DNA of 64,000 bases from Pseudomonadota bacterium (GCA_039110515.1 JBCCFY010000010.1:50202-114201), one strand, 5' to 3'. Positions 2,104 to 19,210 are shown, counted from the first letter of the stretch. The notes: generated from the sequence alone by a model not told the origin. Program-made: numbers and translations.

Positions 2104-3300
2104 ATGAGGACTGTTTATTTTGATGTAGAAAATACTCTGAATGTGCCTTTTATCACGGGGATCCAACGTGTCGTCCGAAATTTTGCAAGTGTTGTACTCA
2201 ATCCTTCATTTGACGATCCAGAATTGGATTTCGTACCGATAATCTACGACCACCATGCGGCAAATTGGAGACGACTATCAGCCAAGGAACAAAATGAGTT
2301 AGTTTCATCATCACCTCGCAAAGCTGATTTTCTCAGCCGGGTTAAGCGCAAGCTGAGCAGGCTGGTACTTCGAGTCAAACCCCTGGTAATCAACAAACTC
2401 GATGAAACAGCCATTTTTTTTGACATCGAGAGCTCTTGGCATTCAAGGTTGTCGCGTAACGAGCTGCTGCCCGATCTGCAAAAACAAGGAGTTCAGATTG
2501 CTAAATTGCATTACGACATCATTCCAATACTCTTTCCGAAAACGACCCACCCCAATACACTAAAGGTTTTCTCCGAACATTTGTTTAGCCACCTCCTCTA
2601 TGCGGATGTTTTTTTCTGTATTAGTCATCAGACCAAGCAAGATTTGATCGACTTTTGTGAGGAGCATGCGTGGCGAATACCTGAATCAAGAGTTATTCGC
2701 TTGGGAACCAAGATCGACGCTTTGCAATGCGAACCCGATGATTCTGAAGGCCGATTCCATGAGCAAAAAAATCTCGGGCGCTATATTCTAACCGTTGGAA
2801 CTTTGGAGCCGCGAAAGAACCATGTTCTGTTGTTAGACGCCTTCAATACTATATCGCAGAAGACCAACCTGAATTTAGTTTTAGTTGGAAAGATCGGTTG
2901 GCAGGCCGAAGATATTCTGGCGACGATTAGGTCGCATCCTTTATTCAACCAAAGAGTGTTCTATCTTGGTGAAGTTTCGGATACACGATTACAGGGTTTG
3001 TATGAGAACGCCTGGTTAAATGTCATTCCCTCCCAGTACGAAGGCTTTGGTTTGCCAGTAACTGAAGCCCTGGCACGCGGGGTGCCGACTGTGTGTTCCG
3101 ATGCTGGCGCCTTAACCGAGGTTGGGGCTAATCATGCGAAGTTTTTTTCCGTGTCGTCAGCGGATGACCTGGCAGCTCAGGTGTTGGAGGTAGCTCAGAA
3201 CAAGGCCTCATATCAGACATTGCTACGTGCGGCGGAAGTGTTCCAACCGATAAGTTGGGAGCAGACGGTAGCAGATATCGTTGATGGCCTGAAAGGATAA
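2104..3300 (+). CDS. Glycosyltransferase family 4 (WbpX/WbdA-domain-like)
   Basis: TGIQRVVR N-terminus, VGTLEPRKNH, and EGFGLPVTEA (EX7E) motifs. Confidence 0.9.
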   Translation: MRTVYFDVENTLNVPFITGIQRVVRNFASVVLNPSFDDPELDFVPIIYDHHAANWRRLSAKEQNELVSSSPRKADFLSRVKRKLSRLVLRVKPLVINKLDETAIFFDIESSWHSRLSRNELLPDLQKQGVQIAKLHYDIIPILFPKTTHPNTLKVFSEHLFSHLLYADVFFCISHQTKQDLIDFCEEHAWRIPESRVIRLGTKIDALQCEPDDSEGRFHEQKNLGRYILTVGTLEPRKNHVLLLDAFNTISQKTNLNLVLVGKIGWQAEDILATIRSHPLFNQRVFYLGEVSDTRLQGLYENAWLNVIPSQYEGFGLPVTEALARGVPTVCSDAGALTEVGANHAKFFSVSSADDLAAQVLEVAQNKASYQTLLRAAEVFQPISWEQTVADIVDGLKG

Positions 3301-3713: not shown

Positions 3714-5804
3714 TTGCATCGTAGCGATCGCGAGAATCTTCTATTAAGACATTCCAACTTGCCAAAGAAAAATAACACAACCTGTATTATTGGCATGCAC
3801 CGATGTGGCACCTCTATGGTGGCCGGAATCCTGGCAAAATGTGGCTATGATTTTGGTTCTGCCAGTGAATTGTTGCCAGCAAATCAGAGTAATTCCCTTG
3901 GCTATTTTGAAAACGAAAAAATAGCCTATAGAGTCAATGATGCCATCTTCTCGCACTTTGGCGGTTCTTGGCATAACCCGCCAGAGCTACCGCCAGGCTG
4001 GCAAAGCAAACCGGAATTGGAACACTTGCGGAGTCGGGCAAAGGCTGTCGTCGACTCTTACGGAGGGCATCAAAATTGGGCCTGGAAAGATCCTCGGGCG
4101 AGCTTGCTGGTTCCATTTTGGGAACAGTTAGTGCCCGATATGACATACATTATTTGCGTCCGTAACCCAATCGATGTCGCTCGCTCACTGCAACAACGAG
4201 ATGGGTTGTCGATGCAAGAAGCAACCGGTCTCTGGCATCAATATGTATCCTCGGCTCTGGCACAAACGTCCGACAGCCGCAGAATCATTGTCTTTTATGA
4301 GGATTTTTTTGAGGCTCCCAGAGCAGCCTTGACCAAGTTGCTGGAGTTTCTCGATGTGCCTCACCAACCAAAGGAAACTGAACTGGAAAAATCTATCTTC
4401 CAACGTCTCCGACATCATCAAACTACGCTGGAAGAACTTGAGCTGAATGCCGAAATCAGTTTGGAATGTAAGCAGTTGTATATTAGTTTGAGAAAACAAT
4501 ACTCGATGGGTTTCCAGCTTACGGATGGGAAAAAATCTACCGATGAATCGAGAGGACTAGGACTCGATCAGTCATTGGAATCTAACCTCATACCCGCCTC
4601 CACTGCAGCGTTGACCGATGCGTTGATTTCCAAGACGGTAATGGTTTTTCCTAAGTACCAGAACCCATTGGTGAGCATTGTTATTCCAACTTATAACAAG
4701 CTAGAGGTGTTGATTTCATGCTTGAGAACGGTGTTGCAATTTACCGATGTCCCATATCAACTCATTGTCGTCAATGATGCCTCCACCGATGGCACAGCTG
4801 AATGCTTGGAGCAGCTTGAGAATGTCACGGTAGTCCACAATGAACAAAATTTGGACTTCTTGCGTAGCGCTAATATTGGTGTCGACCATGCACAGGGGAA
4901 GTATATTCTGTTCCTAAATAATGATGTCAGTGTACGCGCCAATTGGCTGCAGCCCCTCATTGACACATTTACAAACGTTGACAAATGCGGTGCAGTTGGC
5001 ACCAAATTGATCGGCATGGACGGTCGGCTGCAGGAAGCCGGAGCTGCGGTCTGGCAAGATGGCACGGTAAGCCTATATGGCGCTGGTGATAATCCATTTA
5101 AACCAGAGTATTCCTATCCACGAGAAACAGATTATTGCTCTGCAGCATGTTTATTAGTTAGAAGGGATTTGTTCGAGGAGCTTGGGAAGTTTGACGAACG
5201 GTTCATCCCTGCGTATTACGAAGACGTCGATTTCTGTCTGACCGTTTGGGCATCTGGTTATAAGGTTATTTATCAACCACAAGTTGCCGTGTTCCATCAT
5301 CATATGGCCAGCCGCACAATACAAAAAGTGAAATCAATGTTGGAAACCAATAGAGCAGTGTTCGTCGAAAAATGGCAGTCTACGTTGCAAGCTCGTAGTG
5401 TTGAGAAGAATAGTTTCTATGCGCGAAACAGATATCTGGGTAAGCGTATCGCAGTGATTGGGGGAGAGCAATTTGGTCAACTGATAGGGCGCTCCGGGAC
5501 TAATTGCTTTGCAGATTTACTGGCACTGGCCTCATCAGGCTACGCGTTGTCAGTATTGTGCAGTTCAGACTTGGAACTCGATGCTGAGCAAATAGACACA
5601 TTTCAAGACCACGGAATCGAGGTTTTTTATGACAGTAGCTTTGATTCTTCCCGCTTGCTGGAAGAACGCAATGGGCAATATGATTACTTTGTTTGCGACG
5701 AAAATCAGCATCCACATATAGGCATGTTGATCGAAACCTTATATCCTGATGCCACGCTATTGGAAATTTCTGAATTAGGAAAACTAAGTGTAGCGGGGGA
5801 ATGA
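3714..5804 (+). CDS. Sulfotransferase-GT2 glycosyltransferase fusion with a truncated C-terminal GT4-like half-domain
   Basis: GMHRCGTS (5'-PSB), WKDPR and RNPIDVARSL sulfotransferase motifs; then VSIVIPTYN, VVNDASTD, LFLNND, YYEDVDFC GT2 motifs; start codon uncertain (TTG 3714 or 3759). Confidence 0.88.
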   Translation: MHRSDRENLLLRHSNLPKKNNTTCIIGMHRCGTSMVAGILAKCGYDFGSASELLPANQSNSLGYFENEKIAYRVNDAIFSHFGGSWHNPPELPPGWQSKPELEHLRSRAKAVVDSYGGHQNWAWKDPRASLLVPFWEQLVPDMTYIICVRNPIDVARSLQQRDGLSMQEATGLWHQYVSSALAQTSDSRRIIVFYEDFFEAPRAALTKLLEFLDVPHQPKETELEKSIFQRLRHHQTTLEELELNAEISLECKQLYISLRKQYSMGFQLTDGKKSTDESRGLGLDQSLESNLIPASTAALTDALISKTVMVFPKYQNPLVSIVIPTYNKLEVLISCLRTVLQFTDVPYQLIVVNDASTDGTAECLEQLENVTVVHNEQNLDFLRSANIGVDHAQGKYILFLNNDVSVRANWLQPLIDTFTNVDKCGAVGTKLIGMDGRLQEAGAAVWQDGTVSLYGAGDNPFKPEYSYPRETDYCSAACLLVRRDLFEELGKFDERFIPAYYEDVDFCLTVWASGYKVIYQPQVAVFHHHMASRTIQKVKSMLETNRAVFVEKWQSTLQARSVEKNSFYARNRYLGKRIAVIGGEQFGQLIGRSGTNCFADLLALASSGYALSVLCSSDLELDAEQIDTFQDHGIEVFYDSSFDSSRLLEERNGQYDYFVCDENQHPHIGMLIETLYPDATLLEISELGKLSVAGE

Positions 5805-7027
5805 CTATGTCTGACGAACACAATGAAAATCAAGGTCATAAGTTGAGGAAAACTCGCAGTTCTCGATCCCGAACAAGCCTTTCTAAAAAGGAGTTGCTGT
5901 CCAGATATGAAAATTTGGAAGTTATTCTTGCGGACAAGGAAGTATTCATCGATAACCTCATTGATCGAGCGGGCAAGCTTGAATCTGATGTTCTGGAAAA
6001 AGATGAGTATGCAGAAAATCTGTCCAATACATTACAGCGGCATGAAGAGCATATTGGAAATCTCGATAAAGCGATTCAGCAACGAGATGATCACGTAGCG
6101 CGATTAGAGCAGGAGAATAGTCAAACAGTCGACTTGTTGCACAAAAATCAACGCGCCGAAGAACTGATTGTCGGTCTGAAATCAGAAGTACTGTCGTTGC
6201 AAGCTAATAGTGCCCAATTCGATGCCCAGCTGGAAAAACAAAACGCCATAATCGATGCGTTGCTGGGAAAACAAAATGCCAAAGTAGAATCGATGTTGGG
6301 CAAACAACAATCGGCTACCGGTCATTTAATGGCCCAGTCTGAGAGTGTGTCGCAGGATTTACGAAACTTAAAAGCCCAACTTGATCTGGTTGAGAAGAAC
6401 AGAAAAAAGGATGAGTCAGAGTTCAAAACCAAATGGGGAGACGAAGTTGTCAGAAGGCATCGGGCATTGCAGCAGGAAATAAATCGATTGCAAATGAAGT
6501 TAGAGGCGGCAAACCGGCAACGTCAAACGGTGGGCGAACTGAAGAATGAGATAAATGAGTTAAACAATGAAATCGAACGCCGCGATAATTGGGGAAATAA
6601 TGTGCAAGCACGTCTCGCTACGGTCGCCGCGGAGCTTTCCGCCATCAAGTCTTCAAGCTCATGGTTCATCACAAAACCTCTCCGACTGCTTGCAGAAAGC
6701 ATAAAGTTTTTACTCGCCAAACTACTTTGGCTGATCCTGCTGCCTTATCGACTATTGGTAAAGCTCGGCTGGTGGCTGGCGCCGAAGACGTTTCATCGTA
6801 TCTATCACTCGAACTTGGTCCGATCTTTGAGAAAGACTGAAAAAATGCCTCTCGTGGAAGCACCGCATAGTACGTTTGAGATAGCAGCAGCGACGCCTGC
6901 ACCGGAGGTAAGTCCCCCGGTTAAACCCATTCCGATGGAACCAAGTATTAATCAAGGTCCCGCGCAGAAATCCACACAAGGAGCGTGGCGATTAGGGAAA
7001 CGGTTGGACAAACCCGAAAGCAAATAA
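5801..7027 (+). CDS. Coiled-coil protein, WbdD-type chain-length ruler / membrane-anchor-like
   Basis: About 300 aa of heptad-rich sequence ending in SSSWFITKPLR plus an amphipathic/hydrophobic helix; ATGA overlap with the upstream gene. Confidence 0.7.
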   Translation: MTMSDEHNENQGHKLRKTRSSRSRTSLSKKELLSRYENLEVILADKEVFIDNLIDRAGKLESDVLEKDEYAENLSNTLQRHEEHIGNLDKAIQQRDDHVARLEQENSQTVDLLHKNQRAEELIVGLKSEVLSLQANSAQFDAQLEKQNAIIDALLGKQNAKVESMLGKQQSATGHLMAQSESVSQDLRNLKAQLDLVEKNRKKDESEFKTKWGDEVVRRHRALQQEINRLQMKLEAANRQRQTVGELKNEINELNNEIERRDNWGNNVQARLATVAAELSAIKSSSSWFITKPLRLLAESIKFLLAKLLWLILLPYRLLVKLGWWLAPKTFHRIYHSNLVRSLRKTEKMPLVEAPHSTFEIAAATPAPEVSPPVKPIPMEPSINQGPAQKSTQGAWRLGKRLDKPESK

Positions 7028-7030
7028 TTT

Positions 7031-10000
7031 ATGCGAATTGTTGTGGATTTACAGGCCTGTCAGGCCGAGGGGTACTATCAGCGTGGCATCGGTAACTACT
7101 CACTTGGGCTGGTTAAAGGCATGCAAGAGTTGTCTCCTGCGGGCAGCGTGTTTACATTGGGTTCTGGGGCGTTGCCTTATGAGCTGGATGATTCCGTTAT
7201 CAGGGCAGATAGACATATTCGGTTAAATGCTGATCTTCCCTGGAGTGCCGCAGGAGATTTCGAGGGCGGGAGTCTTGATTCAATCGGTGCCATTCACTAT
7301 GCGACTCAGTGCCAAGCACTGCAACCAGACGTCATTCACGTGTCGCACAATTTCCTGGATTGCAAAGACCGGGTGATGGTACCCGGAGCCACAAATGGAA
7401 TTCCGGGTCAATTAGTAACCACCACCCTGTACGACCTGATACCCTTGAGGTTCGCGGATCACTACCTGCGGGCGGACATTAGTAAGCGACGTTATCATTA
7501 TCAGCTAGAACGACTGCGGCGCTACGATCTTTTATTTGCCATTTCAGAATCGACCAGAGCTGATGCGATCGAGTTGCTGAACATCGAGCCCTGGCGTGTT
7601 GTCACTATACACGGAGGAGTGGAAGGCTTCTATGGCGTGCCCGATTCCAGGTCATCGATGCTTGAGCAACTGCATCAACGATTTCAGCTGAATGAAAAAA
7701 TTTTACTCTATACCGGTGGCGATGATTTTCGCAAAAACATTGATGGACTGATCCAGGGATTCGCCAGCATCGACGCACAACTGCGTGATCGAACAGTTCT
7801 GGTTATTGCCGGAAAGCTCAGCGATGGCAGCAAACAGAACTATCGCAATCTGGTTAAATCGCTGAAGATTCCGGACCAGCATGTTTTATTTACTGGCTTT
7901 ATCAGTGAAGCAGATTTGTCGGCGTTCTATGGCTGCTGTGATGCTTTTATCTTCCCATCTAAGTATGAGGGTCTGGGCTTGCCAGTTATTGAGGCAATGA
8001 AATGTGGTGCGCCGGTAATTGGCAGCGACAATTCAAGTATTAGGGAGTTGATTAAACGCGATGATGCGTTATTTGACGCCGATAACCATCAAGCTATGGC
8101 ACGCGTGATTGAACGTGCACTTAGCGATGATCAGTTTGCCCAAGAGCTCCGTGAACATGCGTTGCGGGAAGGCAGAAACTATTCTTGGCAGAAGTCCGCA
8201 GGCATGGCTTTAGCGGCGATGGATGAGGCATTAAAACAGCAACGCCAGGCAGGTGTGAGTGCGGCTGTGTCGGGATGGCTACCGCGAAAACATCTCGCGC
8301 TCCTCACCCCATTGCCACCTTGTCAGTCCGGCATTGCCGAATATGCGACTGACTTTCTGCCCTATTTGAGTCGCCACTTTGATATCGATATTTATCTCGA
8401 TGGCTATGCACCTAACAAGGCAGAAATTTCCGCAGTCTTTCGCATGTTTGATATCAGCGATTTTGAAGCGAATGCGGAAAACTACGATGCCATATTGTAT
8501 GAAATAGGAAACTCAGATTTCCACTCATACATGCTCCCCTACCTGTATCGATACCCTGGGGTTGTGACGCTTCATGACGCCTATATGAGTGGGATACTGG
8601 CACACCATGAATTCAGCCTGAATCAGCGCAATTCTTATCAGCACGAACTTCTATATTCCCACGGGCCACGGGGGCGGCGATACATCGCACCGAATACTGA
8701 TGACAGAGAGGCAATAGCAGAGGCAATCGATACTTTGCCAACTACCAAAAGGATACTGGATCGAGCCCTTGGTGTGATATCGCATTCCTCCTTTAATATC
8801 GATGTGGCCAATCAACACTTCCCCGAGGGGTGGTTAGCGCCTTACCGCATCGTCCCGCAGATTATGGCTTGCCGCAAACGAGACCCACGACGAACGGCTG
8901 AGTACCGTAATCAGTTAAAACTGCCGGAAGACGCTTTCGTGATCTGCACTTTTGGACATGTGGTGTGGACCAAATGCGGTGACCTATTGCTGCAGGCTTT
9001 TTGTGATTCAGAAATATTAAAAAAAGCCAATGCGCATTTAGTGTTTGTTGGCAAATTGGCAGAAGATGAGTTTGGTACGCGACTTAAAAACAGCATCAAG
9101 AAATTAGGTTCTAAGCGAAACATCCACATCACAGGGTTTGTCGATACTGCTCAGTACGAAGGGTACCTGCAATCTGCGGATGTGGCGGTGCAGCTACGAC
9201 AAAGTAGCCGTGGGGGAACACCTAGATCGGTTTTGGATTGTCTTGCCAATGAGTTACCGGTAGTTATTAACGATTACGCTAGTTTCCAGGACTATCCAGA
9301 CCAAGCGGTGCTTAAGGTTGCCGCTGAAGTTACCGTGGCGGAGGTCAGAGAAAAATTGGAACAGTTGTTTGAGAATCCTGAGATGCGATCAAACTTTGCT
9401 GACCAGGGGATGCACTATGTGCAGAGTCAGCACGACCCGGTCCAATGTGCAGCAGCTTATGCTGCATCCATCGATGAATTCACAAAACGCGCCGAGGCCA
9501 ACAGCAAGCATTATTATCGGCGGGCGCTGGCTCCTCATATAGATCCATCGGAAATGGCGCAACTCAGCGACAGCCTTCCATTCAATACAGGTGAGAGGAA
9601 ATTTCAGCGCAGGAAGCTCTTTGTTGATGTCAGTCATATTGCTCAGACGGATCATCAATCAGGCATTCAAAGAATCGTGCGTGATTTGGTTAGGGAGTTT
9701 TACTTTTTGCAGCAGCCGGGTATTGAACCGGTGGCAGTGGAGTTGGTCGACAAGCGCTTGGTGGTCGCAAAGAATTGGTTAGTGAGCCAAGATTTGTTGT
9801 CCAGCTGTGAGCAGGATCATCTCAGGGCCACGGAGGTTGAGTTTTCCGCAGGAGATGTTTTACTCATGCTGGATTCTTCCTGGGATCGATATTCCGATTT
9901 TTATTCGGTTTTTGAGCGAGCCAGAAACAAGCACGTTCCGATAGTTGGCGTAATCTATGATTTGTTGCCAATCCGCATCCCGGAGTGTTTCGTTGAAGGT

Positions 10001-10762
10001 GGGCCGAAATGGTTCGAGACCTGGCTGAAAAAAGCCATCGATCAGAGCGACGCGTTAATTTCCATTTCAGCGGCTACCGAAACCGATCTCGGTAACTATA
10101 TTCAGAAAAGCCACATCGAAAACCCACCGCTTTTGGGTCATTGGCATCACGGCTGCGATTTCGCTCCTAATAGTGAAGAGGAGAGTACACAGAGGATCAA
10201 AGCAATCCGGGCACACAATCTGGAGCCCAACCGCTACCTGCTCATGGTGGGCACCATTGAACCAAGAAAACTGCATGACGTCGCAGTTGCGGCCATGCGT
10301 CGTCTGTGGGAGAAGGATGTCAATCTTAAACTCTGCATTGCTGGTAAGCAGGGTTGGTTGGTTGAAGAGTTTATGGATGATTTGCGAGACAATAGCGGCA
10401 AACAGGAAAATCTGATTTTTATCGAAGCCCCTACCGATCCGGAGCTTTCACGCTTATACGAGTCTGCCGCAGGATTGCTATTTTTGAGTAAAGGCGAAGG
10501 CTTTGGTTTGCCCCTCATAGAAGCCGCTAGTTACGGGATACCTATTCTCTGTTCAGACATACCTTCTTTTCGCGAAGTAGCCCAAGGTCATGCCACTTTC
10601 ACCGCTGCTCGCAATGGTGAGGAGCTGGCTGACGACATTCACAGTTGGTTCGAACTCAAAACGACTGGAAAACTTCCCGATTCATCGAGCATGAAGGTAA
10701 ACTCTTGCGAGGAAAGTGCTAGCGCAATCGTGCACACCCTATTTACTGAATTAAACCTTTGA
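7031..10762 (+). CDS. Three-domain GT4 glycosyltransferase (WbdA-like polymerase)
   Basis: 1243 aa; EGLGLPVIEA in domain 1, PPCQSGIAEY in domain 2, and SGIQRIVR...EGFGLPLIEA in domain 3. Confidence 0.88.
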   Translation: MRIVVDLQACQAEGYYQRGIGNYSLGLVKGMQELSPAGSVFTLGSGALPYELDDSVIRADRHIRLNADLPWSAAGDFEGGSLDSIGAIHYATQCQALQPDVIHVSHNFLDCKDRVMVPGATNGIPGQLVTTTLYDLIPLRFADHYLRADISKRRYHYQLERLRRYDLLFAISESTRADAIELLNIEPWRVVTIHGGVEGFYGVPDSRSSMLEQLHQRFQLNEKILLYTGGDDFRKNIDGLIQGFASIDAQLRDRTVLVIAGKLSDGSKQNYRNLVKSLKIPDQHVLFTGFISEADLSAFYGCCDAFIFPSKYEGLGLPVIEAMKCGAPVIGSDNSSIRELIKRDDALFDADNHQAMARVIERALSDDQFAQELREHALREGRNYSWQKSAGMALAAMDEALKQQRQAGVSAAVSGWLPRKHLALLTPLPPCQSGIAEYATDFLPYLSRHFDIDIYLDGYAPNKAEISAVFRMFDISDFEANAENYDAILYEIGNSDFHSYMLPYLYRYPGVVTLHDAYMSGILAHHEFSLNQRNSYQHELLYSHGPRGRRYIAPNTDDREAIAEAIDTLPTTKRILDRALGVISHSSFNIDVANQHFPEGWLAPYRIVPQIMACRKRDPRRTAEYRNQLKLPEDAFVICTFGHVVWTKCGDLLLQAFCDSEILKKANAHLVFVGKLAEDEFGTRLKNSIKKLGSKRNIHITGFVDTAQYEGYLQSADVAVQLRQSSRGGTPRSVLDCLANELPVVINDYASFQDYPDQAVLKVAAEVTVAEVREKLEQLFENPEMRSNFADQGMHYVQSQHDPVQCAAAYAASIDEFTKRAEANSKHYYRRALAPHIDPSEMAQLSDSLPFNTGERKFQRRKLFVDVSHIAQTDHQSGIQRIVRDLVREFYFLQQPGIEPVAVELVDKRLVVAKNWLVSQDLLSSCEQDHLRATEVEFSAGDVLLMLDSSWDRYSDFYSVFERARNKHVPIVGVIYDLLPIRIPECFVEGGPKWFETWLKKAIDQSDALISISAATETDLGNYIQKSHIENPPLLGHWHHGCDFAPNSEEESTQRIKAIRAHNLEPNRYLLMVGTIEPRKLHDVAVAAMRRLWEKDVNLKLCIAGKQGWLVEEFMDDLRDNSGKQENLIFIEAPTDPELSRLYESAAGLLFLSKGEGFGLPLIEAASYGIPILCSDIPSFREVAQGHATFTAARNGEELADDIHSWFELKTTGKLPDSSSMKVNSCEESASAIVHTLFTELNL

Positions 10763-10772
10763 AGGAAAACGC

Positions 10773-12008
10773 ATGCGATATCGCGAAATCAACAACTGCC
10801 GAATCGGGAATAGTGATCATCTTATCTCAGTTTTGGATCTAGGCCACCAAGCGCTGACCGGCGTGTTTCCAAAATCGGTGGAAGAGGATGTGACGGTTGG
10901 ACCGCTGGAATTGGTCTGGTGTCCGGACAGTGGTCTCCTGCAACTTAAACATTCATACGATCCTGATGAAATGTATGGTGATAATTATGGCTACCGATCT
11001 GGGTTGAATCAGTCGATGGTCGATCACTTGGAACGCAAGGTAGCCTACCTCGAAAAAATGGCCGCACTGGAATCTGGAGACTTGGTCATCGATATCGGAA
11101 GCAATGATGCCACCACCTTGAAAGCCTATCAGACCAAAGGAATTACTCGCATCGGCATTGATCCGGTAGGGGCCAAATTCAGGGAGTTTTATCCTGCCGA
11201 TGTGTCTTTGATCGCAGATTTCTTTTCAGCTGACGTGCTCGCAAAATCTGCGCAAAGCAAGGCCAAGATTATCACCTCCATAGCGATGTTTTATGACCTG
11301 GAAAGCCCAATCAAGTTTGCTCAAGATATCGAGCAATCGCTAGCCGCTGATGGCATTTGGCATTTTGAACAAAGTTATATGCCCTCCATGCTGAGAACGA
11401 ATTCCTACGACACGATTTGTCACGAACATTTGGAATATTATTCATTGGCAAGTGTGCAATATATTCTCCGGCAAGCGAATTTAAAAATAGTCGATGTGGC
11501 GATGAACGACATAAATGGTGGTAGTTTTGCTGTTACTGCTGCCAAAAAGGCGAACACCAGCGTGACCGCAAACAATGCCGTAATTAATTGGCTGTTAGAA
11601 CAAGAATTGCGCATGGGCCTCGATACGGTAAAGCCGTTTAGAGACTTCGAAGAAAAGGTCTATCGGCATCGCAAGGATTTGCAAAATCTGGTGCGCTCGC
11701 TCACAGCAGACGGCAAAAAAGTGCTGGGTTACGGTGCTTCGACCAAAGGTAATGTGATGTTGCAGTTTTGCGGTTTTTCCGCTGCAGACATTCCCGCGAT
11801 AGCGGAGGTCAACCCGGACAAGTTTGGCCGAATCACCCCTGGAACCCACATTCCGATTGTTTCCGAGCAGGAAGCCCATGCCATGCGACCGGACTATTAT
11901 CTGGTGCTACCCTGGCATTTTAAAAATGGCATTCTACGGCGTGAACAGCAATTTCTACAGGAAGGCGGAAAGTTTATTTTTCCGTTTCCCGAAATTGAAA
12001 TAGTTTGA
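10773..12008 (+). CDS. NDP-sugar C-methyltransferase (class I SAM)
   Basis: DLGHQALTG, DIGSNDAT, CHEHLEYYS, GYGASTKGN and VLPWHF motifs typical of NDP-hexose 3-C-methyltransferases. Confidence 0.85.
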   Translation: MRYREINNCRIGNSDHLISVLDLGHQALTGVFPKSVEEDVTVGPLELVWCPDSGLLQLKHSYDPDEMYGDNYGYRSGLNQSMVDHLERKVAYLEKMAALESGDLVIDIGSNDATTLKAYQTKGITRIGIDPVGAKFREFYPADVSLIADFFSADVLAKSAQSKAKIITSIAMFYDLESPIKFAQDIEQSLAADGIWHFEQSYMPSMLRTNSYDTICHEHLEYYSLASVQYILRQANLKIVDVAMNDINGGSFAVTAAKKANTSVTANNAVINWLLEQELRMGLDTVKPFRDFEEKVYRHRKDLQNLVRSLTADGKKVLGYGASTKGNVMLQFCGFSAADIPAIAEVNPDKFGRITPGTHIPIVSEQEAHAMRPDYYLVLPWHFKNGILRREQQFLQEGGKFIFPFPEIEIV

Positions 12009-12047: not shown

Positions 12048-13076
12048 GTGGTTGAGCAAAGCAGATCGGCTCTGATTACCGGGATTTGTGGTCAGGATGG
12101 CGCCTATTTGGCGCAACATCTGCTGGCGAATGGTTACGAAGTAATCGGAACACATCGTAGTGGAGAACCGGATATCTGGCGATTGGAGAAGTTAGCAATA
12201 GCTGCACACCCAAAGCTAACTCTCAAGCAGCTGTGCTTAAGCGACACTACCGGGTTAAACAGCTTTATCACTCAGCAAAGGGTAGACGAAATCTATAATT
12301 TGGCGGCCGTGAGCACGCTTAAACAGGCCGAGGAAAACCCGCTGTTGACCAGCCAGGTGAATGGATTGGCGCCCGTTGCAATGTTGGAAGCGATTAGGCG
12401 AAGTGGGCGAAAAATTCGTTTTTTTCAAGCCTCTTCGGCGGAAATTTATGGTCGCAACAGGGCGCAGCCGCAAACTGAGAATACTCCATTGGCCCCTGAT
12501 AATGTTTATGCAGTCGCGAAAGCCTATGCACACCAAATGGTTGAATATTATCGGCGGCATCACCAAATTTTTGCTTGCAATGGCATTCTCTATAACCACG
12601 AGTCCCCCTTGCGTGGCAGCGAGTTCGTGACCAGGAAAATCTCCGACTCCATGCTCGGGATCGCGAATGGATCATTGTCTTGTCTGGAGATCGGAAATTT
12701 AGCCGCCCAGCGTGATTGGGGTTATGCAAAGGATTATGTGCAGGCAATGCACAAAATGCTCTCAGTCGACCAGCCTGACTCATATATTCTGAGCACGGGA
12801 AAACTGACGACCATCCGTGAGTTTGTCGAGTTAGCTGCGACTGGCGTGGGTATCCGTCTCGCCTGGGAAGGCGCCGGGATGGACGAAGTAGGAATCAATC
12901 AGGCCAACGGTAAAAAGATCGTTGTCATCAATCCTAAATATTACCGCAATGAAGATCATACGACTGCTACCGGTAACCCTTCGAAAGTTAAGGCACAACT
13001 GGCTTGGGCAGCCACTACGTCAGTTGCTGAGTTATGCAGATTTATGTTGGGCAGCACTACTTCGCAAACGCACTAG
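12048..13076 (+). CDS. gmd: GDP-mannose 4,6-dehydratase-like SDR (copy 1)
   Basis: ALITGICGQDG, FFQASSAEIYG, YAVAK, NHESPLRG and RDWGYA motifs. Confidence 0.85.
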   Translation: MVEQSRSALITGICGQDGAYLAQHLLANGYEVIGTHRSGEPDIWRLEKLAIAAHPKLTLKQLCLSDTTGLNSFITQQRVDEIYNLAAVSTLKQAEENPLLTSQVNGLAPVAMLEAIRRSGRKIRFFQASSAEIYGRNRAQPQTENTPLAPDNVYAVAKAYAHQMVEYYRRHHQIFACNGILYNHESPLRGSEFVTRKISDSMLGIANGSLSCLEIGNLAAQRDWGYAKDYVQAMHKMLSVDQPDSYILSTGKLTTIREFVELAATGVGIRLAWEGAGMDEVGINQANGKKIVVINPKYYRNEDHTTATGNPSKVKAQLAWAATTSVAELCRFMLGSTTSQTH

Positions 13077-13144: not shown

Positions 13145-13906
13145 CTAATTGTGGCTCAGTACATCCAGATTCTGATGTTGCATGACTTCCTCAATGTCGC
13201 CAAAGGCGATGAGTTTACCGTGCTCGAGGTAGATCGCCTTATTGCATAGGTGACGAGCCACATCTGGGTGGTGGGTGGCGAAGACAAGAATGGATGAGGC
13301 AAAAACCATTCTGGACAGACGTTCCCGAGCTTTGACAATAAAGTCCGCATCTCCCGCACCAATCCATTCATCGAGTAACAAAATTTCGCTATTAACGCTG
13401 GTGCATATTGAAAATGCCAAGCGCAGAGTCATTCCTTGAGAATAGAGTCTGACTGGTAAATACAAGTAAGAACCGAGTTCGCTGAACTCAGCGATTTCCT
13501 CTACTTTCTGCAGAATCTCTTTGCGCTCTAAGCCATGCAACATGCCGCACAGCAGAATATTGTCGTAGCCACTCTGGTTTACATCCATGCCGGCCATTAA
13601 ATTCAATAATACTGATAGTTTTCCTTCTTTTTCGATGTGTCCCTTGGTCGGTTCATAAAAACCAGATAGTAGTTTGAGCAACGAGGTCTTACCTGCTCCA
13701 TTATTGCCTAACAAGGCCACCCGATCGCCATCGACAAAAGTTAGGTTTAGATTATCCAGCGCCAATATCGAAGACTTAGTGGAACCGTCATTTTTAATTT
13801 TCCCTCCGACCTGCATGCCACGCGTGAGGGAACGGGTGAACGAACGACTCACCGTGTCGTAAATGGGGTACTCGAGGCTGACGTTGCTGAGTTTAATAAA
13901 TGGCAT
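13145..13906 (-). CDS. wzt: Polysaccharide ABC exporter ATP-binding subunit without a C-terminal carbohydrate-binding domain
   Basis: Walker A GNNGAGKT, signature YSQGM, Walker B ILLLDE; only 253 aa. Confidence 0.92.
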   Translation of the reverse strand: MPFIKLSNVSLEYPIYDTVSRSFTRSLTRGMQVGGKIKNDGSTKSSILALDNLNLTFVDGDRVALLGNNGAGKTSLLKLLSGFYEPTKGHIEKEGKLSVLLNLMAGMDVNQSGYDNILLCGMLHGLERKEILQKVEEIAEFSELGSYLYLPVRLYSQGMTLRLAFSICTSVNSEILLLDEWIGAGDADFIVKARERLSRMVFASSILVFATHHPDVARHLCNKAIYLEHGKLIAFGDIEEVMQHQNLDVLSHN

Positions 13907-13924: not shown

Positions 13925-14731
13925 TCAAAGCCAAAAAGCGATCCGTGATCGGTATCGCGCAAAGAGTGCAAATGCCAAAATCCAGCCAGACACTGCCATC
14001 GCTGCTGTGATCTGCCAATGCACGAGGCTGATGTTGCCCTGCAGCAGCGGTTCTCGAAATAACTCAATGAGATGGAAGAACGGGTTTAACTGGGCGATTT
14101 GATTTAATTGTTCATTGGCATTTGGCATCCAGATAATTGGCGTCACGAAAAATACCAATCTAAATATATTGTTAAATAACTCAGAAAAGTCCCGGTAGCG
14201 CGCAGCTAATATACTCATGATGAGACCAATCCATAGCGCATTCAGCATAATCATTAGCAGCGCTAGCGGCACGACGGCCCATTCAACTGCTACTGGTTGT
14301 CGAAAAAACAATGCCAAGATAACAAACACCAACATTTGATAACACAGCACGACCGTGTTTCGCCAAACTACTCGGAACAACAGTGTGAAGTAACTTAACT
14401 GAAACGATGTCAGATAATGTGCTGATCCAATAAATTCCTTGCTGCATTCCAGGATAATGTTCGAAACAAAATTCCAAACAATGAAACCCAAAAGCAGGTG
14501 GATCATGTAGACGCGGGTTTCAACTGACATCAGGCTCGCGTAAATAGGACCCAAGGCACCAACGAAAATGAGAATGCTTAGGCTGGCCCAAAACACCCCA
14601 AGTTTGGATCGGTTATAGCGGTTATTGACATCATTCCAGCCTAAAGCCAGCCATACCGAGCGACTGTTGATTCCGTTTAGAAGATCCACTAAAGCATTAT
14701 TGAAATGCGTATTTCCAGCTGGCATGGTCAA
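13925..14731 (-). CDS. wzm: Polysaccharide ABC exporter permease
   Basis: RYNRSKLGVFW, multiple TM helices, FFVTPIIW and LNPFFHLIELFR motifs; adjacent to wzt. Confidence 0.92.
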   Translation of the reverse strand: MTMPAGNTHFNNALVDLLNGINSRSVWLALGWNDVNNRYNRSKLGVFWASLSILIFVGALGPIYASLMSVETRVYMIHLLLGFIVWNFVSNIILECSKEFIGSAHYLTSFQLSYFTLLFRVVWRNTVVLCYQMLVFVILALFFRQPVAVEWAVVPLALLMIMLNALWIGLIMSILAARYRDFSELFNNIFRLVFFVTPIIWMPNANEQLNQIAQLNPFFHLIELFREPLLQGNISLVHWQITAAMAVSGWILAFALFARYRSRIAFWL

Positions 14732-15057: not shown

Positions 15058-15744
15058 ATGGCTGAAGACAATGACGCGCGCGTAGCAGACGCGCAGGAAG
15101 TAGAACAAATCTCTTGGTACCACTCCATTGACTTGGGGAATGGCATTGTCACCAATGGGCGGAAGGACTTTTCAACCTGTTTGGCAGAGGCGGATGTTGT
15201 TTTCGACCATGATGTAAGCGGCAAATCAGTATTGGATATAGGCGCCTGGTCTGGGTTTTTCTCGTTTGAGGCAGATCGTCGTGGCGCTGCTGAAGTACTG
15301 AGTACGGATAGTTTCGCATGGGAACAATTGGGTGGACGACCTGGTTTTGACTATGCACGAAGTGTACTTGCTCCGGGGATAAAAGATCAGTTCATTGATA
15401 TTATGGATCTCTCAAGCGAAAAAGTTGGTCAATTTGACGTCGTGTTGTTTCTTGGAGTGTTGTACCACATGCGACACCCCATGTTGGCATTGGAAATCGT
15501 CAGTGAAGTTTGCAAGGAGCACCTCGTGGTCGAGACACATATGGGATGTACCCATCTTGATTATCCAGCTGCGGAGTTTTACCCCACGGATGAACTGGGT
15601 TCTGATCCCAGTAACTGGTGGGGAATGAATGAACCAGCAATCATCGGCATGTTAAAGAGTAATGGCTTCGAAACAGTAGAGTATGTGCCTCACCCAATTG
15701 CAAATTGGGCTCCCACTCGTGGCTTTTTCCATGCTTTTAAATAA
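15058..15744 (+). CDS. Class I SAM methyltransferase (DUF1698/CmoB-like), probable polysaccharide O-methyltransferase
   Basis: WYHSIDLG, VLDIGAWSGFFSF and FDVVLFLGVLYH motifs; context within the polysaccharide cluster. Confidence 0.8.
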   Translation: MAEDNDARVADAQEVEQISWYHSIDLGNGIVTNGRKDFSTCLAEADVVFDHDVSGKSVLDIGAWSGFFSFEADRRGAAEVLSTDSFAWEQLGGRPGFDYARSVLAPGIKDQFIDIMDLSSEKVGQFDVVLFLGVLYHMRHPMLALEIVSEVCKEHLVVETHMGCTHLDYPAAEFYPTDELGSDPSNWWGMNEPAIIGMLKSNGFETVEYVPHPIANWAPTRGFFHAFK

Positions 15745-15842
15745 CAACCTGCTATGCATTTTTTGTTGGTTTATTTCGCCTAAATCGGATTAGTACTATA
15801 CTAATTCGCAGATTGATTATTGGGATAGGGTTACTTAATCTA

Positions 15843-16877
15843 GTGAAAACCGCGCTTATAACAGGAATTTCTGGCCAGGGAGGCGCCCATCTCGCCAAGA
15901 GTCTGTGTGGCGATGGCTATCATGTGGTTGGTACTACCAGAGATACCAAACAGGTGGACACGACCAACCTGCTAAATTTAGGGATTCTGGACGAAATTGC
16001 TTTGCGATCACTAGACCTCCAAGATGACAGTCTTGTGCTCGATCTAATTGACCAGCTCCGTCCGGATGAAATTTACCACCTAGCCGCTCCTTCATCGGTT
16101 GCAAGGTCATTCAAAGAACCCGCCGAGACCATTTATAGCATTGCCTTAACGACGGTTAATCTCTTGGAGGCTATCCGCAAGACGGATAAGACAATCCCTT
16201 GTTTTGTCGCTACCTCGACTGAAATGTTCGGTAACTGTGAGGTGCCGGCTAATAAGGATACGGCGCATGATCCTAAGAGCCCGTACGGCATTGGCAAAAG
16301 TTGTGCCCACTTCCAAGTGCGAAATTATCGTCAGGCTTACGGCTTATATGTCTGTAGTGGCATCCTGTCAAACTTTGAATCTCCTCTACGACCTCGCAAT
16401 TATGTCACCTCCAAGATTGTTAGCACGGCGTGTCAAATCGCGCTGGGTGAAGCTGAGAACATTGAGCTGGGGAATCTCAGTGTGAGAAGAGATTGGGGTT
16501 CAGCGGCTGAGTTTATGAACGGTGCAAGGCTCACGTTGCAGCAAGAGAAGCCCGATGATTATGTAATTGCCACCGGAGTAACTCACAGCCTTCGGGATTT
16601 TTTGCAAATGGCCTTTTCTTCTCTCGGGTTAGATTATCGCGATCACTTGTTGGTGCGAGATTCCCTTCTACGGCCGCTGGATATAAAACAAACACTGTGC
16701 GATCCTCAGGAAACGGAGAGCAAATTGGCATGGAAGGCAAGCACGCCGCTTAAGCAAGTGGTTTTTGACATGGTTCACACCGAGCTAAGCGCGCAAGTAG
16801 GAGCCACCAGAGCAGCAGCGCTGATGATACCAAGAGAGTCAAACGTGGTGACACTGAATAAAAATAACACGGGGTAA
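15843..16877 (+). CDS. gmd: Divergent GDP-mannose 4,6-dehydratase-like SDR (copy 2)
   Basis: GTG at 15843; ALITGISGQGG, TSTEMFG, SPYGIGK, NFESPLR and RRDWG motifs. Confidence 0.75.
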   Translation: MKTALITGISGQGGAHLAKSLCGDGYHVVGTTRDTKQVDTTNLLNLGILDEIALRSLDLQDDSLVLDLIDQLRPDEIYHLAAPSSVARSFKEPAETIYSIALTTVNLLEAIRKTDKTIPCFVATSTEMFGNCEVPANKDTAHDPKSPYGIGKSCAHFQVRNYRQAYGLYVCSGILSNFESPLRPRNYVTSKIVSTACQIALGEAENIELGNLSVRRDWGSAAEFMNGARLTLQQEKPDDYVIATGVTHSLRDFLQMAFSSLGLDYRDHLLVRDSLLRPLDIKQTLCDPQETESKLAWKASTPLKQVVFDMVHTELSAQVGATRAAALMIPRESNVVTLNKNNTG

Positions 16878-16901: not shown

Positions 16902-18056
16902 ATGAGCAAACATGATTTTGCCAAACTCAAGAATATTGAAAAAGGAAAGGATGGTTCTGAGTCGAGCAAAGTACTGCATATCTGTAAGGTGTACCTGCCG
17001 GTTAAGGGAGGGGTACAACGTGTCGTCCAGCGAATTACCGCTCGTTTAGCGGATTTTACGCATCAGGTAATCACTACCGGTGAAGATGGTGCTGTTGATC
17101 GGCAACAACTGGATCGTGCCGATGTGATCCGTTGCCGATCCTATGGTCAACTTGCTTCAATGCCCATCGCACCCTCACTTCCCGGTCAGGTGATAAAGAT
17201 CGCCAGAAAACAGGATTTGATCGCATTGCACTACCCGTTCCCCTTGGCGGAACTCGCGCTCTGCTTTTTCTTCTCTAACACACCCATCGTCGTACACTGG
17301 CATTCCAATATCATTGCACAGAAAAAACTCAAGTGGTTGGTAGCTCCGTTGACGTTGGTGGTTCTGTGGCGCGCAAAGGCGATTGTAGCCACCTCAGGCA
17401 GGATGATTGAGAATTCTTTCTGGCTTAAACGGTTTCGCAATAAAGTGCGCACTATTCCCTATGGTATGGAGAGTGTGACGCCTTCCCAAACCTTACCACT
17501 TGCACCCAATGGTTATTTCGTCGTGATTGGCAGGCATGTTTCCTACAAAGGCATTGACGTAGCAATTAGATCTCTTGAGCACTCTGATCATCGTTTGATT
17601 ATCGTTGGTGATGGCCCCTTGTTTGAGCGCCACAAGCTGCTGGCGGAAGATCTCGGACTCAAGGCCCGGGTCAAGTTCGAGCAACAGGCGAATGATGAAA
17701 AGGTTAATGAAATACTGCAGAGCGCAATCGCTTTGGTGGTCTCGTCTAATAGAGAAAACGAAGCCTTCGCCTTGGTTCAACTGGAAGCCATGCGCCTGGG
17801 CAAGGCCGTAATAAACACCAATCTGAATTCTTCCGTACCCTGGGTTGCCCGCCATGAGAAGGAGGCGTTAACTGTGCCACCCGATGATGCCAAGGCCTTG
17901 GCGCAGGCAATGCAGACATTGAAAGCTGATCCAGAGCTGGCAAGCAGTCTCGGTGAACAAGGACTGCTTCGATACCAGGAGAAGTTTACCGCTGAACATT
18001 TCGCACAGGCCACCAGTGAACTCTACCGCGCGCACGCGAAGTCCCTGGCACAGTGA
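16902..18056 (+). CDS. GT4 glycosyltransferase, WbpZ/WbdC-like
   Basis: LHICKVYLP..GGVQRV, LHYPFP, GRHVSYKG and EAFALVQLEAM motifs. Confidence 0.82.
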   Translation: MSKHDFAKLKNIEKGKDGSESSKVLHICKVYLPVKGGVQRVVQRITARLADFTHQVITTGEDGAVDRQQLDRADVIRCRSYGQLASMPIAPSLPGQVIKIARKQDLIALHYPFPLAELALCFFFSNTPIVVHWHSNIIAQKKLKWLVAPLTLVVLWRAKAIVATSGRMIENSFWLKRFRNKVRTIPYGMESVTPSQTLPLAPNGYFVVIGRHVSYKGIDVAIRSLEHSDHRLIIVGDGPLFERHKLLAEDLGLKARVKFEQQANDEKVNEILQSAIALVVSSNRENEAFALVQLEAMRLGKAVINTNLNSSVPWVARHEKEALTVPPDDAKALAQAMQTLKADPELASSLGEQGLLRYQEKFTAEHFAQATSELYRAHAKSLAQ

Positions 18057-19210
18057 GGCAGGCCCTCTATAACCTGGAAAACATTCGACCGCCGCTGACC
18101 GGGATAGGTCGATATGCAGTGGAAATAGTCCGCGGTGGCCTGGATGCGGGATACCCACTGTCGGCGATGATAGGCAACCAGCTGTTGCAGGGAGATTCTC
18201 TCAGAGAAAAACTCGATCTGTTATTGACCAAAACGAGCGGCAACGGTAGTGACTTTCGAAAACTGATCGGTCATGTTCCAAAAAGCCGTGACTATTACCG
18301 ATGGGCAAACATCAAGCGTTTTGAGAAGTTGGCCAGAGCTGAACTCGACGCAGGGGCGGTGTACCATGATTTAAACTATGCTCCGCGAACCAATAGCAAT
18401 GGCAGTGTCACCACTGTTTATGATGTTTCTCACTACCTTTATCCGCAGACACACCCGAGACACCGAGTTCGGTACCTGGAGCGGCTATTCTCAATTCTTC
18501 AACAAGGAAATCAACCCATCATCACCATCAGCAACAGTGTCAAAGCCGAGCTTGAGGAGCATTACCAGATTCCAGCCGAACGCATTGTTGTCACCCCTCT
18601 GGCAGCGGATCCTTCATTCCGGCCGCGGCCAGAGGCAGAATTCAGTCAGCTGCCTGAACTCAAGCGGCTAAAGTACAAGCACTATGTTTTGTGTGTCGGT
18701 ACGCTGGAACCACGTAAGAATTTACACCGGGTACTCGACGCCTACCAGGCGTTGGACGACGACCTGCAGCAACAGTTCCCACTGGTTATTGCCGGCTCTA
18801 GCGGATGGAAGTCAGCACAACTTGAACGTCAGATTGCCAGCATGGAGCAACAGGGCAAGCTAATAAAATTCGGTTTTGTGAGTGATAGGCTACTGCCGAG
18901 TTTATACGCCGGTGCCAAAGCCTTTGTTTTCCCCTCTCTTTATGAAGGATTTGGCTTGCCGTTGCTCGAAGCAATGCAAAGTGGCTGCCCATGCATTACC
19001 TCAGGCTCAGGCGCGCTGGCAGAACTGTCTGCACACCACGCTTTGCAGGTAGACCCTATGCAAGCATCTGAGATCGAGACCGCGTTGAAAACCTTGCTTG
19101 AAAAAGACGGTACAGCGAGCGAATACGCCACGCTAGGACTACGGCGAGCCAGCGATTTCAGTTGGGAAAAAACCATCGAACAAACTCACGCTGTTTACCA
19201 AATGGTGTAG
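18053..19210 (+). CDS. GT4 glycosyltransferase, WbpY/WbdB-like
   Basis: PLTGIGRY, VGTLEPRKNL and SLYEGFGLPLLEAM motifs; GTGA overlap with the upstream gene. Confidence 0.85.
   Translation: MRQALYNLENIRPPLTGIGRYAVEIVRGGLDAGYPLSAMIGNQLLQGDSLREKLDLLLTKTSGNGSDFRKLIGHVPKSRDYYRWANIKRFEKLARAELDAGAVYHDLNYAPRTNSNGSVTTVYDVSHYLYPQTHPRHRVRYLERLFSILQQGNQPIITISNSVKAELEEHYQIPAERIVVTPLAADPSFRPRPEAEFSQLPELKRLKYKHYVLCVGTLEPRKNLHRVLDAYQALDDDLQQQFPLVIAGSSGWKSAQLERQIASMEQQGKLIKFGFVSDRLLPSLYAGAKAFVFPSLYEGFGLPLLEAMQSGCPCITSGSGALAELSAHHALQVDPMQASEIETALKTLLEKDGTASEYATLGLRRASDFSWEKTIEQTHAVYQMV

Follow-up and report, generated by a model that had tools for sequence, protein, structure and literature searches.

A 64,000-nucleotide stretch of the genome of a Pseudomonadota bacterium (GCA_039110515.1 JBCCFY010000010.1:50202-114201; the whole stretch is called the window here) encodes, at positions 3714-10762, three consecutive proteins: a predicted sulfotransferase joined to a GT2 glycosyltransferase (P0001), a coiled-coil protein free of any recognizable enzyme (P0002), and a glycosyltransferase with three GT4 modules (P0003). 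We tentatively propose that they form a three-protein extension/termination complex, organized like a split WbdD, for a sulfated 6-deoxyhexose glycan exported by Wzm/Wzt; we regard this as possible rather than probable. From the data below we infer all of the protein contacts, the role of the coil as a ruler, and the ending of chains by sulfate or a sulfated sugar. The arrangement would be a split version of the polymerase-terminator-ruler design, a version not previously described in the literature that we found.

The split into separate genes is real and conserved. The P0001 and P0002 genes meet in an ATGA overlap, gggggaATGActATG, which the original prediction had read correctly, though an alternative start for P0002 (ATG 5807) is better spaced from GGGGGA and is the one used in a public protein (P0008, 406 amino acids); whichever start is taken, the gap between the two genes is at most 2 nucleotides. 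P0003 begins 3 nucleotides past the P0002 stop, and in related loci the two genes overlap by 11-20 nucleotides; in many loci the coil gene overlaps both of its neighbors. The same order of separate open reading frames (ORFs), namely unknown protein, GT4, sulfotransferase/GT2, coil, multi-GT4, C-methyltransferase, and Gmd, is found in the window, in G003/L005 (also L008), and in loci L006, L009, L010/L011, and L015. At two distant loci, L007 and L016, a sulfotransferase-GT2 protein (39-40% identity) is directly followed by a coil protein of 145 and 257 amino acids, respectively. In all eight distinct loci, the gene that comes after the coil-less sulfotransferase-GT2 encodes a coil protein with the same conserved N-terminal block.

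To delimit the coil family, all 1.84 billion representatives were scanned in HMMER, with P0002 residues 250-345 as query (E ≤ 1e-10). Eight clusters only were returned, each of 322-406 amino acids with the match at the C-terminal end, so that none of the eight is fused to an enzyme. Among 120 homologs of P0001, none is a fusion of P0002 to a P0001-type enzyme, and 10 hits to the C-terminal module of the coil likewise include no fused form. The earlier proposal that the candidate ruler and its enzyme are separate polypeptides is thus upheld by an enzyme-free coil protein, by separate ORFs in seven loci with the full layout and two with a short version, and by the lack of any fused form in these searches. 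A frameshift or sequencing error was considered as the origin of the split and was rejected, since separate ORFs recur in nine independent loci.

P0002 (positions 5801-7027, + strand) is an ORF of 408 amino acids, or slightly shorter if ATG 5807 is the start. No Pfam domain was found in it, and only a basic tail of about 28 residues precedes the coil. Residues 1-292 are free of proline, and AlphaFold2 (AF2) predicts helices at residues 29-201, 211-284, and 286-326, with disorder from residue 348. The hydrophobic periodicity has its maximum at 3.5 rather than 3.6 residues (z = 7.3; reached by 0 of 1000 shuffles), and the same 3.5-residue periodicity is seen in all eight coil-family members. The heptad-periodic helical rod comprises about 256 residues (29-284). 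A coil of about 300 residues, ending in SSSWFITKPLR and an amphipathic helix, had been predicted; these elements are all present, in that order, and the length was an overestimate.

Conservation along P0002 is concentrated at its two ends. The N-block (residues 36-112; 5906-6136, + strand; DKEvFIDNLIxRaGxLE ... HIxxLDxAIxQRDxHV), presumed to be distal, is followed by a variable, indel-rich middle (residues 113-249; 6137-6547, + strand) that contains the break between the first two AF2 helices. The C-block (residues 250-345; 6548-6835, + strand), presumed to be membrane-proximal, comprises the end of the coil, SSSWFITKPLR (residues 285-295; 6653-6685, + strand), a basic amphipathic helix-Pro-helix running from residue 296 to about 327 (6686-6781, + strand), and FHRIYH; its invariant residues are W264, W288, P315, Y316, G323, W324, P328, F331, H332, Y335, and H336. 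Past a proline-rich disordered linker lies an extreme C-terminal motif, W-x-x-G-x-R-[IL]-D (6977-7015, + strand), in which W396, G399, R401, and D403 are invariant. Mean pairwise identity among eight full-length members is 40% in the N-block, 17% in the middle, 37% in the C-block, 12% in the proline-rich linker, and 45% in WxxGxRxD. The middle of the coil shows 30% gap mismatch, with insertions of 14, 27, and 52 residues in separate members; even so, the motif tryptophan keeps a roughly constant spacing of 183-243 residues from the N-block (211-214 in five of nine). Conserved ends with a variable middle are the pattern described for spacer coiled coils (PMC5082667), and P0002 would accordingly have the anatomy expected of a spacer with two working ends.

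The helix at residues 296-327 is basic and amphipathic family-wide, with three to six Lys/Arg and no more than one acidic residue. Its Kyte-Doolittle value (KD19) is 1.93 in P0002 and 0.8-1.5, under the transmembrane threshold, in six of the eight members; a transmembrane tail-anchor was therefore rejected at family level by hydropathy, P0002 itself standing at 1.93. At family level the segment is best described as a predicted interfacial amphipathic helix.

The coil proteins all start with a disordered tail of 15-35 residues rich in Lys, Arg, Ser, and Thr (residues 1-28 of P0002; window 5801-5884). Lying beside a sulfotransferase, such a basic tail could bind an anionic product or the membrane. 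The motif S-x-S-W-[KR]-x-T-x-P-[LFM]-R closes coiled coils in many glycosyltransferase-linked proteins (P0138, P0139, P0025, and several fused relatives), and the S-x-S-W motif also occurs as two to four tandem copies following glycosyltransferase domains of proteins that have no other relationship; the motif could serve for docking or for contact at the membrane interface.

The short coil proteins of the distant loci L007 and L016 (P0130 and P0141) keep the basic tail, the N-block (DKEVxIDNLIGR...), the coil, and a terminal S..W..T.P.R. At these two loci there is no amphipathic anchor on the coil protein and no multi-GT4 gene after it; the C-terminal anchor module co-occurs only with a multi-GT4 gene. 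This pattern suggests that the occurrence of the N-block is tied to the enzyme, and that of the C-block to the polymerase.

It is very improbable, in our judgment, that the coil protein belongs to some other process (cytoskeletal, secretory, or that of a Wzz-like co-polymerase) or is a functionless, decaying remnant of a fused gene. Such an origin would sit well with two observations: P0002 showed no homology to WbdD or to a protein of solved structure, and it gave weak SMC-type matches, as coiled coils of every kind tend to do. A protein search based on a word index returned only P0002 itself, and a sequence search of the PDB gave nothing meaningful and no WbdD match at E ≤ 1, the C-terminal region of WbdD not being in the PDB. 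Against it stand an intact ORF, end blocks conserved in eight diverged lineages, and a constant position in which the gene overlaps or abuts both neighbors. P0002 also has no signal peptide and no transmembrane helix pair of the kind expected of polysaccharide co-polymerase (PCP)/Wzz proteins.

P0001 (positions 3714-5804, + strand; 696 amino acids counted from TTG 3714) was delimited from Pfam matches, an AF2 model, and homologs, 16 of which are full length (39-50% identity). The model (mean predicted local distance difference test score, pLDDT, 77.7) contains three folded domains and a disordered linker at residues 266-307. The first domain (residues ~19-263; 3768-4502, + strand) is of the type dependent on 3′-phosphoadenosine 5′-phosphosulfate (PAPS), with matches to PF13469 (Sulfotransfer_3, residues 25-218; E 6e-13; 49.9 bits, cut-off 27) and PF00685 (34.4 bits, E 2e-8; cut-off 22). 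The PAPS 5′-phosphosulfate loop GMHRCGTS, the WKDPR motif, and the 3′-phosphate motif RNPxDVxxSL are invariant among eight relatives, and a profile of the domain matches aryl, tyrosylprotein, CurM, and StaL sulfotransferases in the PDB. We accordingly assign it, from family profiles and motifs, to the PAPS-dependent sulfotransferases (PF13469/PF00685).

The second domain of P0001 (residues ~312-560; 4647-5393, + strand) matches PF00535 (Glycos_transf_2; residues 321-490; E 6e-28, 98.4 bits) and conserves the acidic motifs VVNDAS, NND, and YYEDVD (D355, D359, N403-D404, and E503-D504-D506). A Foldseek search with the whole P0001 model has GT-A enzymes as its best matches (E 1e-15); the output, dominated by the GT-A domain, is uninformative on the sulfotransferase and the third domain. 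The domain is thus predicted to belong to the GT2 (GT-A) glycosyltransferases, and the sulfotransferase-GT2 gene of the original prediction is recovered in both of its parts. The third domain (120-140 residues; 5436-5792, + strand) is Rossmann-like, with a beta-alpha-beta arrangement at residues 578-693 of the AF2 model, and was recognized by alignment to fused relatives (P0025, P0027, P0033, P0035, P0046, P0048, and P0091), in which its counterpart directly follows GT2 and continues into a full Glycos_transf_1 domain. Because it aligns to the N-terminal half of a full GT4, it appears to be a truncated GT-B domain lacking the donor-binding half.

The start of P0001 bears on how readily such proteins are recognized. 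ATG 3795 falls inside the P-loop, and the public call for this protein (P0009, 669 amino acids) starts at an ATG within the loop; the true start is therefore a non-ATG codon upstream, either TTG 3714, the position taken in the original prediction, or TTG 3759. Orthologs in L009 (7852-7972) and L010 (7942-8062) are likewise miscalled, with the PAPS loop encoded upstream in the open frame. These miscalls remove GMHRCGTS: P0016-P0018 have no PF13469 call, and P0018 has no sulfotransferase call of any kind. Annotation pipelines thus overlook the sulfotransferase domain in some orthologs.

P0003 (positions 7031-10762, + strand; 1243 amino acids) contains three Glycos_transf_1 stretches (E 5e-82), as had been predicted for a three-domain GT4 in this place, and is presumed from its domain content to be a multi-module glycosyltransferase that serves as the polymerase. 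Modules 1 and 3 carry the signatures YEGLGLPVIEA and GEGFGLPLIEA. The middle module (residues ~705-735; window ~9150-9230) does not have the usual E-x7-E and reads SSRGGTPRSVLDCLANELPV, which is conserved in the ortholog from G003; it may be an atypical module or one without catalytic function.

When the 120 best homologs of P0001 were mapped by domain, these proteins fell within a wider group. Outside the 16 proteins of the Arenicella type, a single-chain layout prevails, made up of a head, a coiled coil of 60-190 residues, a homologous GT2, and often a GT4. The head is a homologous sulfotransferase in about 40 clusters and elsewhere a methyltransferase or a GT2; the homologous GT2 always comes after the coil. 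Every known terminator occupies this head position on its coil (PMC11231755), and it is here that the sulfotransferase of the fused relatives lies. In a search with profiles of the two conserved blocks of P0002, the N-block matched the coil of fused relatives and the C-block the end of that coil, with E values of 1e-4 to 1e-8, obtained in a 120-sequence database with scores inflated by coiled-coil composition. In the closest fused relative, P0025, the order is sulfotransferase, short coil, HSKSWRLTAPLR, basic helix, about 230 amino acids, GT2 (44% identity), and full GT4. The Arenicella layout has the look of a descendant, or a sibling, that arose from the fused type by rearrangement, in which the coil, motif, and helix would have become a gene of their own, the head would have been joined to GT2, the GT4 would have been halved, and a separate three-module GT4 would polymerize. 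The fused relatives make a stronger case for a sulfate cap than this locus does.

It is also conceivable, and we consider it improbable, that P0002 is a real ruler and that the stop is something other than sulfate, either a terminal sugar added by GT2 or a methyl group or C-methyl sugar supplied by neighboring methyltransferases, with sulfation as a secondary decoration. Kdo (3-deoxy-D-manno-octulosonic acid) transferases of families GT99 and GT137 are proven terminators in Klebsiella O12 and O4 (PMC11231755), the cluster includes a sugar C-methyltransferase and a second, small methyltransferase, and GT2 heads also precede coils in some relatives. In the roughly 40 fused relatives described above, however, the head of the coil is a sulfotransferase and the homologous GT2 stands only on the far side of the coil; the catalytic motifs of the sulfotransferase, too, are invariant.

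Several fused sulfotransferase-coil-GT2 relatives (L012 1124-3682 and 14232-19512; L018 16506-19956) lie within clusters that hold more sulfotransferases, and one such cluster also encodes an ABC importer of the sulfate/molybdate type, together with a Dlt-like set for D-alanylation. The L012 and L018 clusters are probably different glycan systems with a common head-coil-GT2 core.

For the split complex of the window we envisage the following course. The glycan would be built at the inner membrane, on its cytoplasmic side, before export via Wzm/Wzt. P0002 would act as a peripheral-membrane stalk without a catalytic domain, with its C-block (SxSW..T.PLR, the basic helix, and FHRIYH, together with WxxGxRxD) bound to the membrane and recruiting the three-module GT4 polymerase, much as the C-terminal part of WbdD does with WbdA. 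Its N-block, some 210-245 residues distant, would dock the sulfotransferase-GT2 protein in trans. At 1.48 Å per residue the stalk would measure about 30-36 nm if it is a single continuous coiled coil. Chains reaching the distal end would be modified by GT2 and/or the PAPS-dependent sulfotransferase (possibly by sulfation after GT2 adds a residue), and extension would stop. The full proposition, in which a free-standing ruler recruits the polymerase at its membrane end and a trans-acting glycosyl-/sulfotransferase at its distal end, the chain is ended with a sulfated residue, and the exporter does not read a cap so that termination and export gating are uncoupled, seems to us doubtful.

An extended coiled coil is the characteristic marker of polymerase-terminator-ruler systems, and in all characterized rulers of ABC-transporter-dependent glycans the terminating enzyme is on the coiled-coil polypeptide itself (PMC11231755). 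Our locus has three features of such systems, a Wzm/Wzt exporter, a predicted multi-module glycosyltransferase polymerase, and a predicted extended coiled coil; the fusion of a terminator to the coil and a carbohydrate-binding module (CBM) on Wzt are both missing. At the proximal end of the coil there is a conserved basic amphipathic helix-Pro-helix, and the genes for coil and polymerase abut or overlap. The likeness to WbdD-WbdA-Wzm/Wzt (Escherichia coli O9a/O8, equivalent to Klebsiella pneumoniae O3/O5) lies in the ABC-transporter pathway and in a separate multi-module GT4, with three modules as in the O8/O5 WbdA (PMC11231755); as in WbdD, a long coil ends in a predicted membrane-binding amphipathic helix beside a presumed polymerase-recruiting region, and a small-group transferase is the candidate stop enzyme. 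Unlike WbdD, in which a kinase/methyltransferase is fused to the coil and the cap is methyl or methyl-phosphate, the coil protein here is enzyme-free and the candidate cap is sulfate, with GT2; Wzt here is without a cap-binding CBM, and the PDB search with P0002 showed no sequence homology to WbdD.

Activities carried by separate polypeptides that assemble on a coiled-coil scaffold are known for K. pneumoniae O4, where the terminator ORF7 (GT137) has its own coil (PMC11231755). Terminator and coil form one polypeptide in O4, and Wzt has a CBM, whereas here the separation goes one step further. WbbB (K. pneumoniae O12/Raoultella terrigena) and ORF6 of K. pneumoniae O7 have a terminator-coil-polymerase layout that is shared by P0029, P0031, P0044, and P0056, whose sequences fit a sulfotransferase-coil-GT2 order, and by about 35 further relatives. 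Unlike WbbB and ORF6, the window protein P0001 has no coil between head and GT2, the coil being supplied by a separate gene, and the main polymerase is presumably the separate three-module GT4.

A literature search that did not cover the key review or the WbbB paper returned no paper tying a sulfotransferase to a coiled-coil ruler or to bacterial chain termination. The sole precedent that we can cite for a sulfate stop is the animal HNK-1 sulfotransferase acting on LARGE1 matriglycan, where, in the account of Sheikh et al. (2020) given in PMC12514197, terminal sulfation can modulate or stop extension. HNK-1 and LARGE1 are unrelated proteins of the eukaryotic Golgi that work without a coiled-coil ruler, and the comparison is an analogy only.

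Several observations weigh against the proposed complex. The AF2 model breaks the coil at residues 202-210, so that the rod may be something other than a single unbroken coil of 36 nm. Between the sulfotransferase and GT2 of P0001 lies a disordered linker of about 45 residues and no spacer, and the GT2 and half-GT4 domains are counterparts of the post-coil, polymerase-side modules of the fused relatives; by this homology a membrane-proximal site fits GT2 better than a distal one. The Wzt-type ABC ATPase (13145-13906, - strand; 253 amino acids) has ABC_tran at residues 50-181 only, and Wzt is without a C-terminal CBM in four of the four loci where it is visible (the window, L006, L007, and L015; 247-251 amino acids in the latter three). 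In all terminated O-polysaccharides studied, Wzt carries a CBM (PMC11231755). No CBM-bearing Wzt was found beside the fused sulfotransferase-coil relatives in L012, L013, L017, and L018 either, so these data lend the sulfate cap no export-gating support. Two stand-alone sulfotransferases are encoded upstream of the window (L014 14318-15214 and 17179-18006; G000:C10, ~3-6 kb away), one of PF13469/PF00685 and one of PF03567, with equivalents conserved in L006, L010, and L015; given these additional enzymes, sulfate is unlikely to be unique to the chain end and is probably placed along the chain.

The CBM-less Wzt of the window, L006, L007, and L015, the additional sulfotransferases beside the cluster, the counterparts of GT2 and half-GT4 on the polymerase side, and the missing spacer would suit the main alternative, in which P0002 is a scaffold only, tethering the GT4 polymerase and perhaps P0001 to the membrane, and in which P0001 decorates the glycan: GT2 would add a backbone or side-branch sugar, sulfation would occur per repeat together with the upstream sulfotransferases, and length would be set by coupling of polymerization to export. 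Length is set by such coupling in the cap-less K. pneumoniae O2a system. We nevertheless consider a scaffold of this kind rather unlikely. A mere anchor needs no coil of 183-243 residues that keeps a similar length at 17% identity, and the conserved distal N-block would be left without an explanation. At L007 and L016 a sulfotransferase-GT2 protein is still accompanied by a coil protein that has no anchor, which a pure membrane tether does not explain.

The genes around the three-protein core are in keeping with a surface-glycan locus. On the + strand the run is tightly packed (an unknown protein of 315 amino acids, GT4, P0001, P0002, P0003, the C-methyltransferase, and a Gmd-like dehydratase). 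It includes a single-module GT4 of 398 amino acids (2104-3300, + strand; Glycos_transf_1, E 7e-28) that is syntenic across all related loci, a predicted sugar C-methyltransferase (10773-12008, + strand; Methyltransf_13, Methyltransf_23, and Methyltransf_14), and a short-chain dehydrogenase/reductase resembling GDP-mannose 4,6-dehydratase (paralog 1; 12048-13076, + strand; GDP_Man_Dehyd, E 8e-107; under the TIGR01472 cut-off). Wzt and the Wzm-type ABC-2 permease (13925-14731, - strand; ABC2_membrane) are on the opposite strand. Beyond them lie a small S-adenosylmethionine-dependent methyltransferase (15058-15744, + strand; Methyltransf_23 and Methyltransf_9), the second GDP-mannose 4,6-dehydratase-like paralog (15813-16877, + strand; GDP_Man_Dehyd, E 7e-86), and two single-module GT4 genes (384 and 385 amino acids; 16902-19210, + strand; Glycos_transf_1) that are candidate adaptor transferases. 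Judged by these assignments, the cluster is predicted to direct ABC-transporter-dependent (Wzm/Wzt) glycan assembly that draws on GDP-6-deoxyhexose chemistry.

The cassette opens with a gene (1122-2069, + strand) for a conserved protein of 315 amino acids for which Pfam, NCBIfam, and PDB searches all gave no match. Its position is kept in relatives, an unannotated gene of 305-322 amino acids occupying the same first place in L006, L009, L010, and L015. A SDDDARP stretch within the protein is a possible glycosyltransferase motif of the DxD type.

Upstream of the window the two sulfotransferases are accompanied by unannotated genes of 486 and 383 amino acids, and a gene of the TauE/SafE sulfite-exporter family lies further upstream. 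Together the upstream sulfotransferases and the TauE/SafE gene point to a multiply sulfated glycan. An adenosine 5′-phosphosulfate (APS) kinase is encoded in the genome, which makes a supply of PAPS plausible; genes of the O-antigen ligase/Wzy_C type were also found, and the product may be an O-antigen, a capsule, or a glycan linked to protein. Giant repeat proteins of 1462 and 2222 amino acids are encoded on either side of the cluster (window 19578-23966; L014 7047-13715, equivalent to G000:C10:37446-44114). Both are based on DUF7933, one adding DUF11 and the other SpaA-like prealbumin-fold domains; they may serve as adhesins or as the proteins that receive the glycan.

The source genome is a 4.5-Mb metagenome-assembled genome (MAG) of a marine, uncultured Arenicella, a gammaproteobacterium. 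Among 41 relatives searched, the coil gene is present in two, the other carrier being labelled "uncultured Arenicella sp.", and a profile search of genome contigs with the coil alignment found that same Arenicella MAG and nothing further. So sparse a distribution is as expected if the locus is of a variable surface-glycan type.

If P0002 is a scaffold and sulfation is internal, the cluster would still give a marine gammaproteobacterium a compact means of making a sulfated deoxyhexan, by an ordinary mechanism. If the split complex that we propose is true, it would provide the first ruler physically separable from its terminator, together with a new cap chemistry: sulfate would join methyl, methyl-phosphate, and Kdo among bacterial chain-stopping caps, and the question would be raised of how length control works with an exporter that does not read the cap. 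A natural split would allow ruler and terminator to vary independently, by coil swaps, head swaps, and titration of each component. Such a system would give a cleaner test of the ruler model and may offer a tool for making glycans of defined length.

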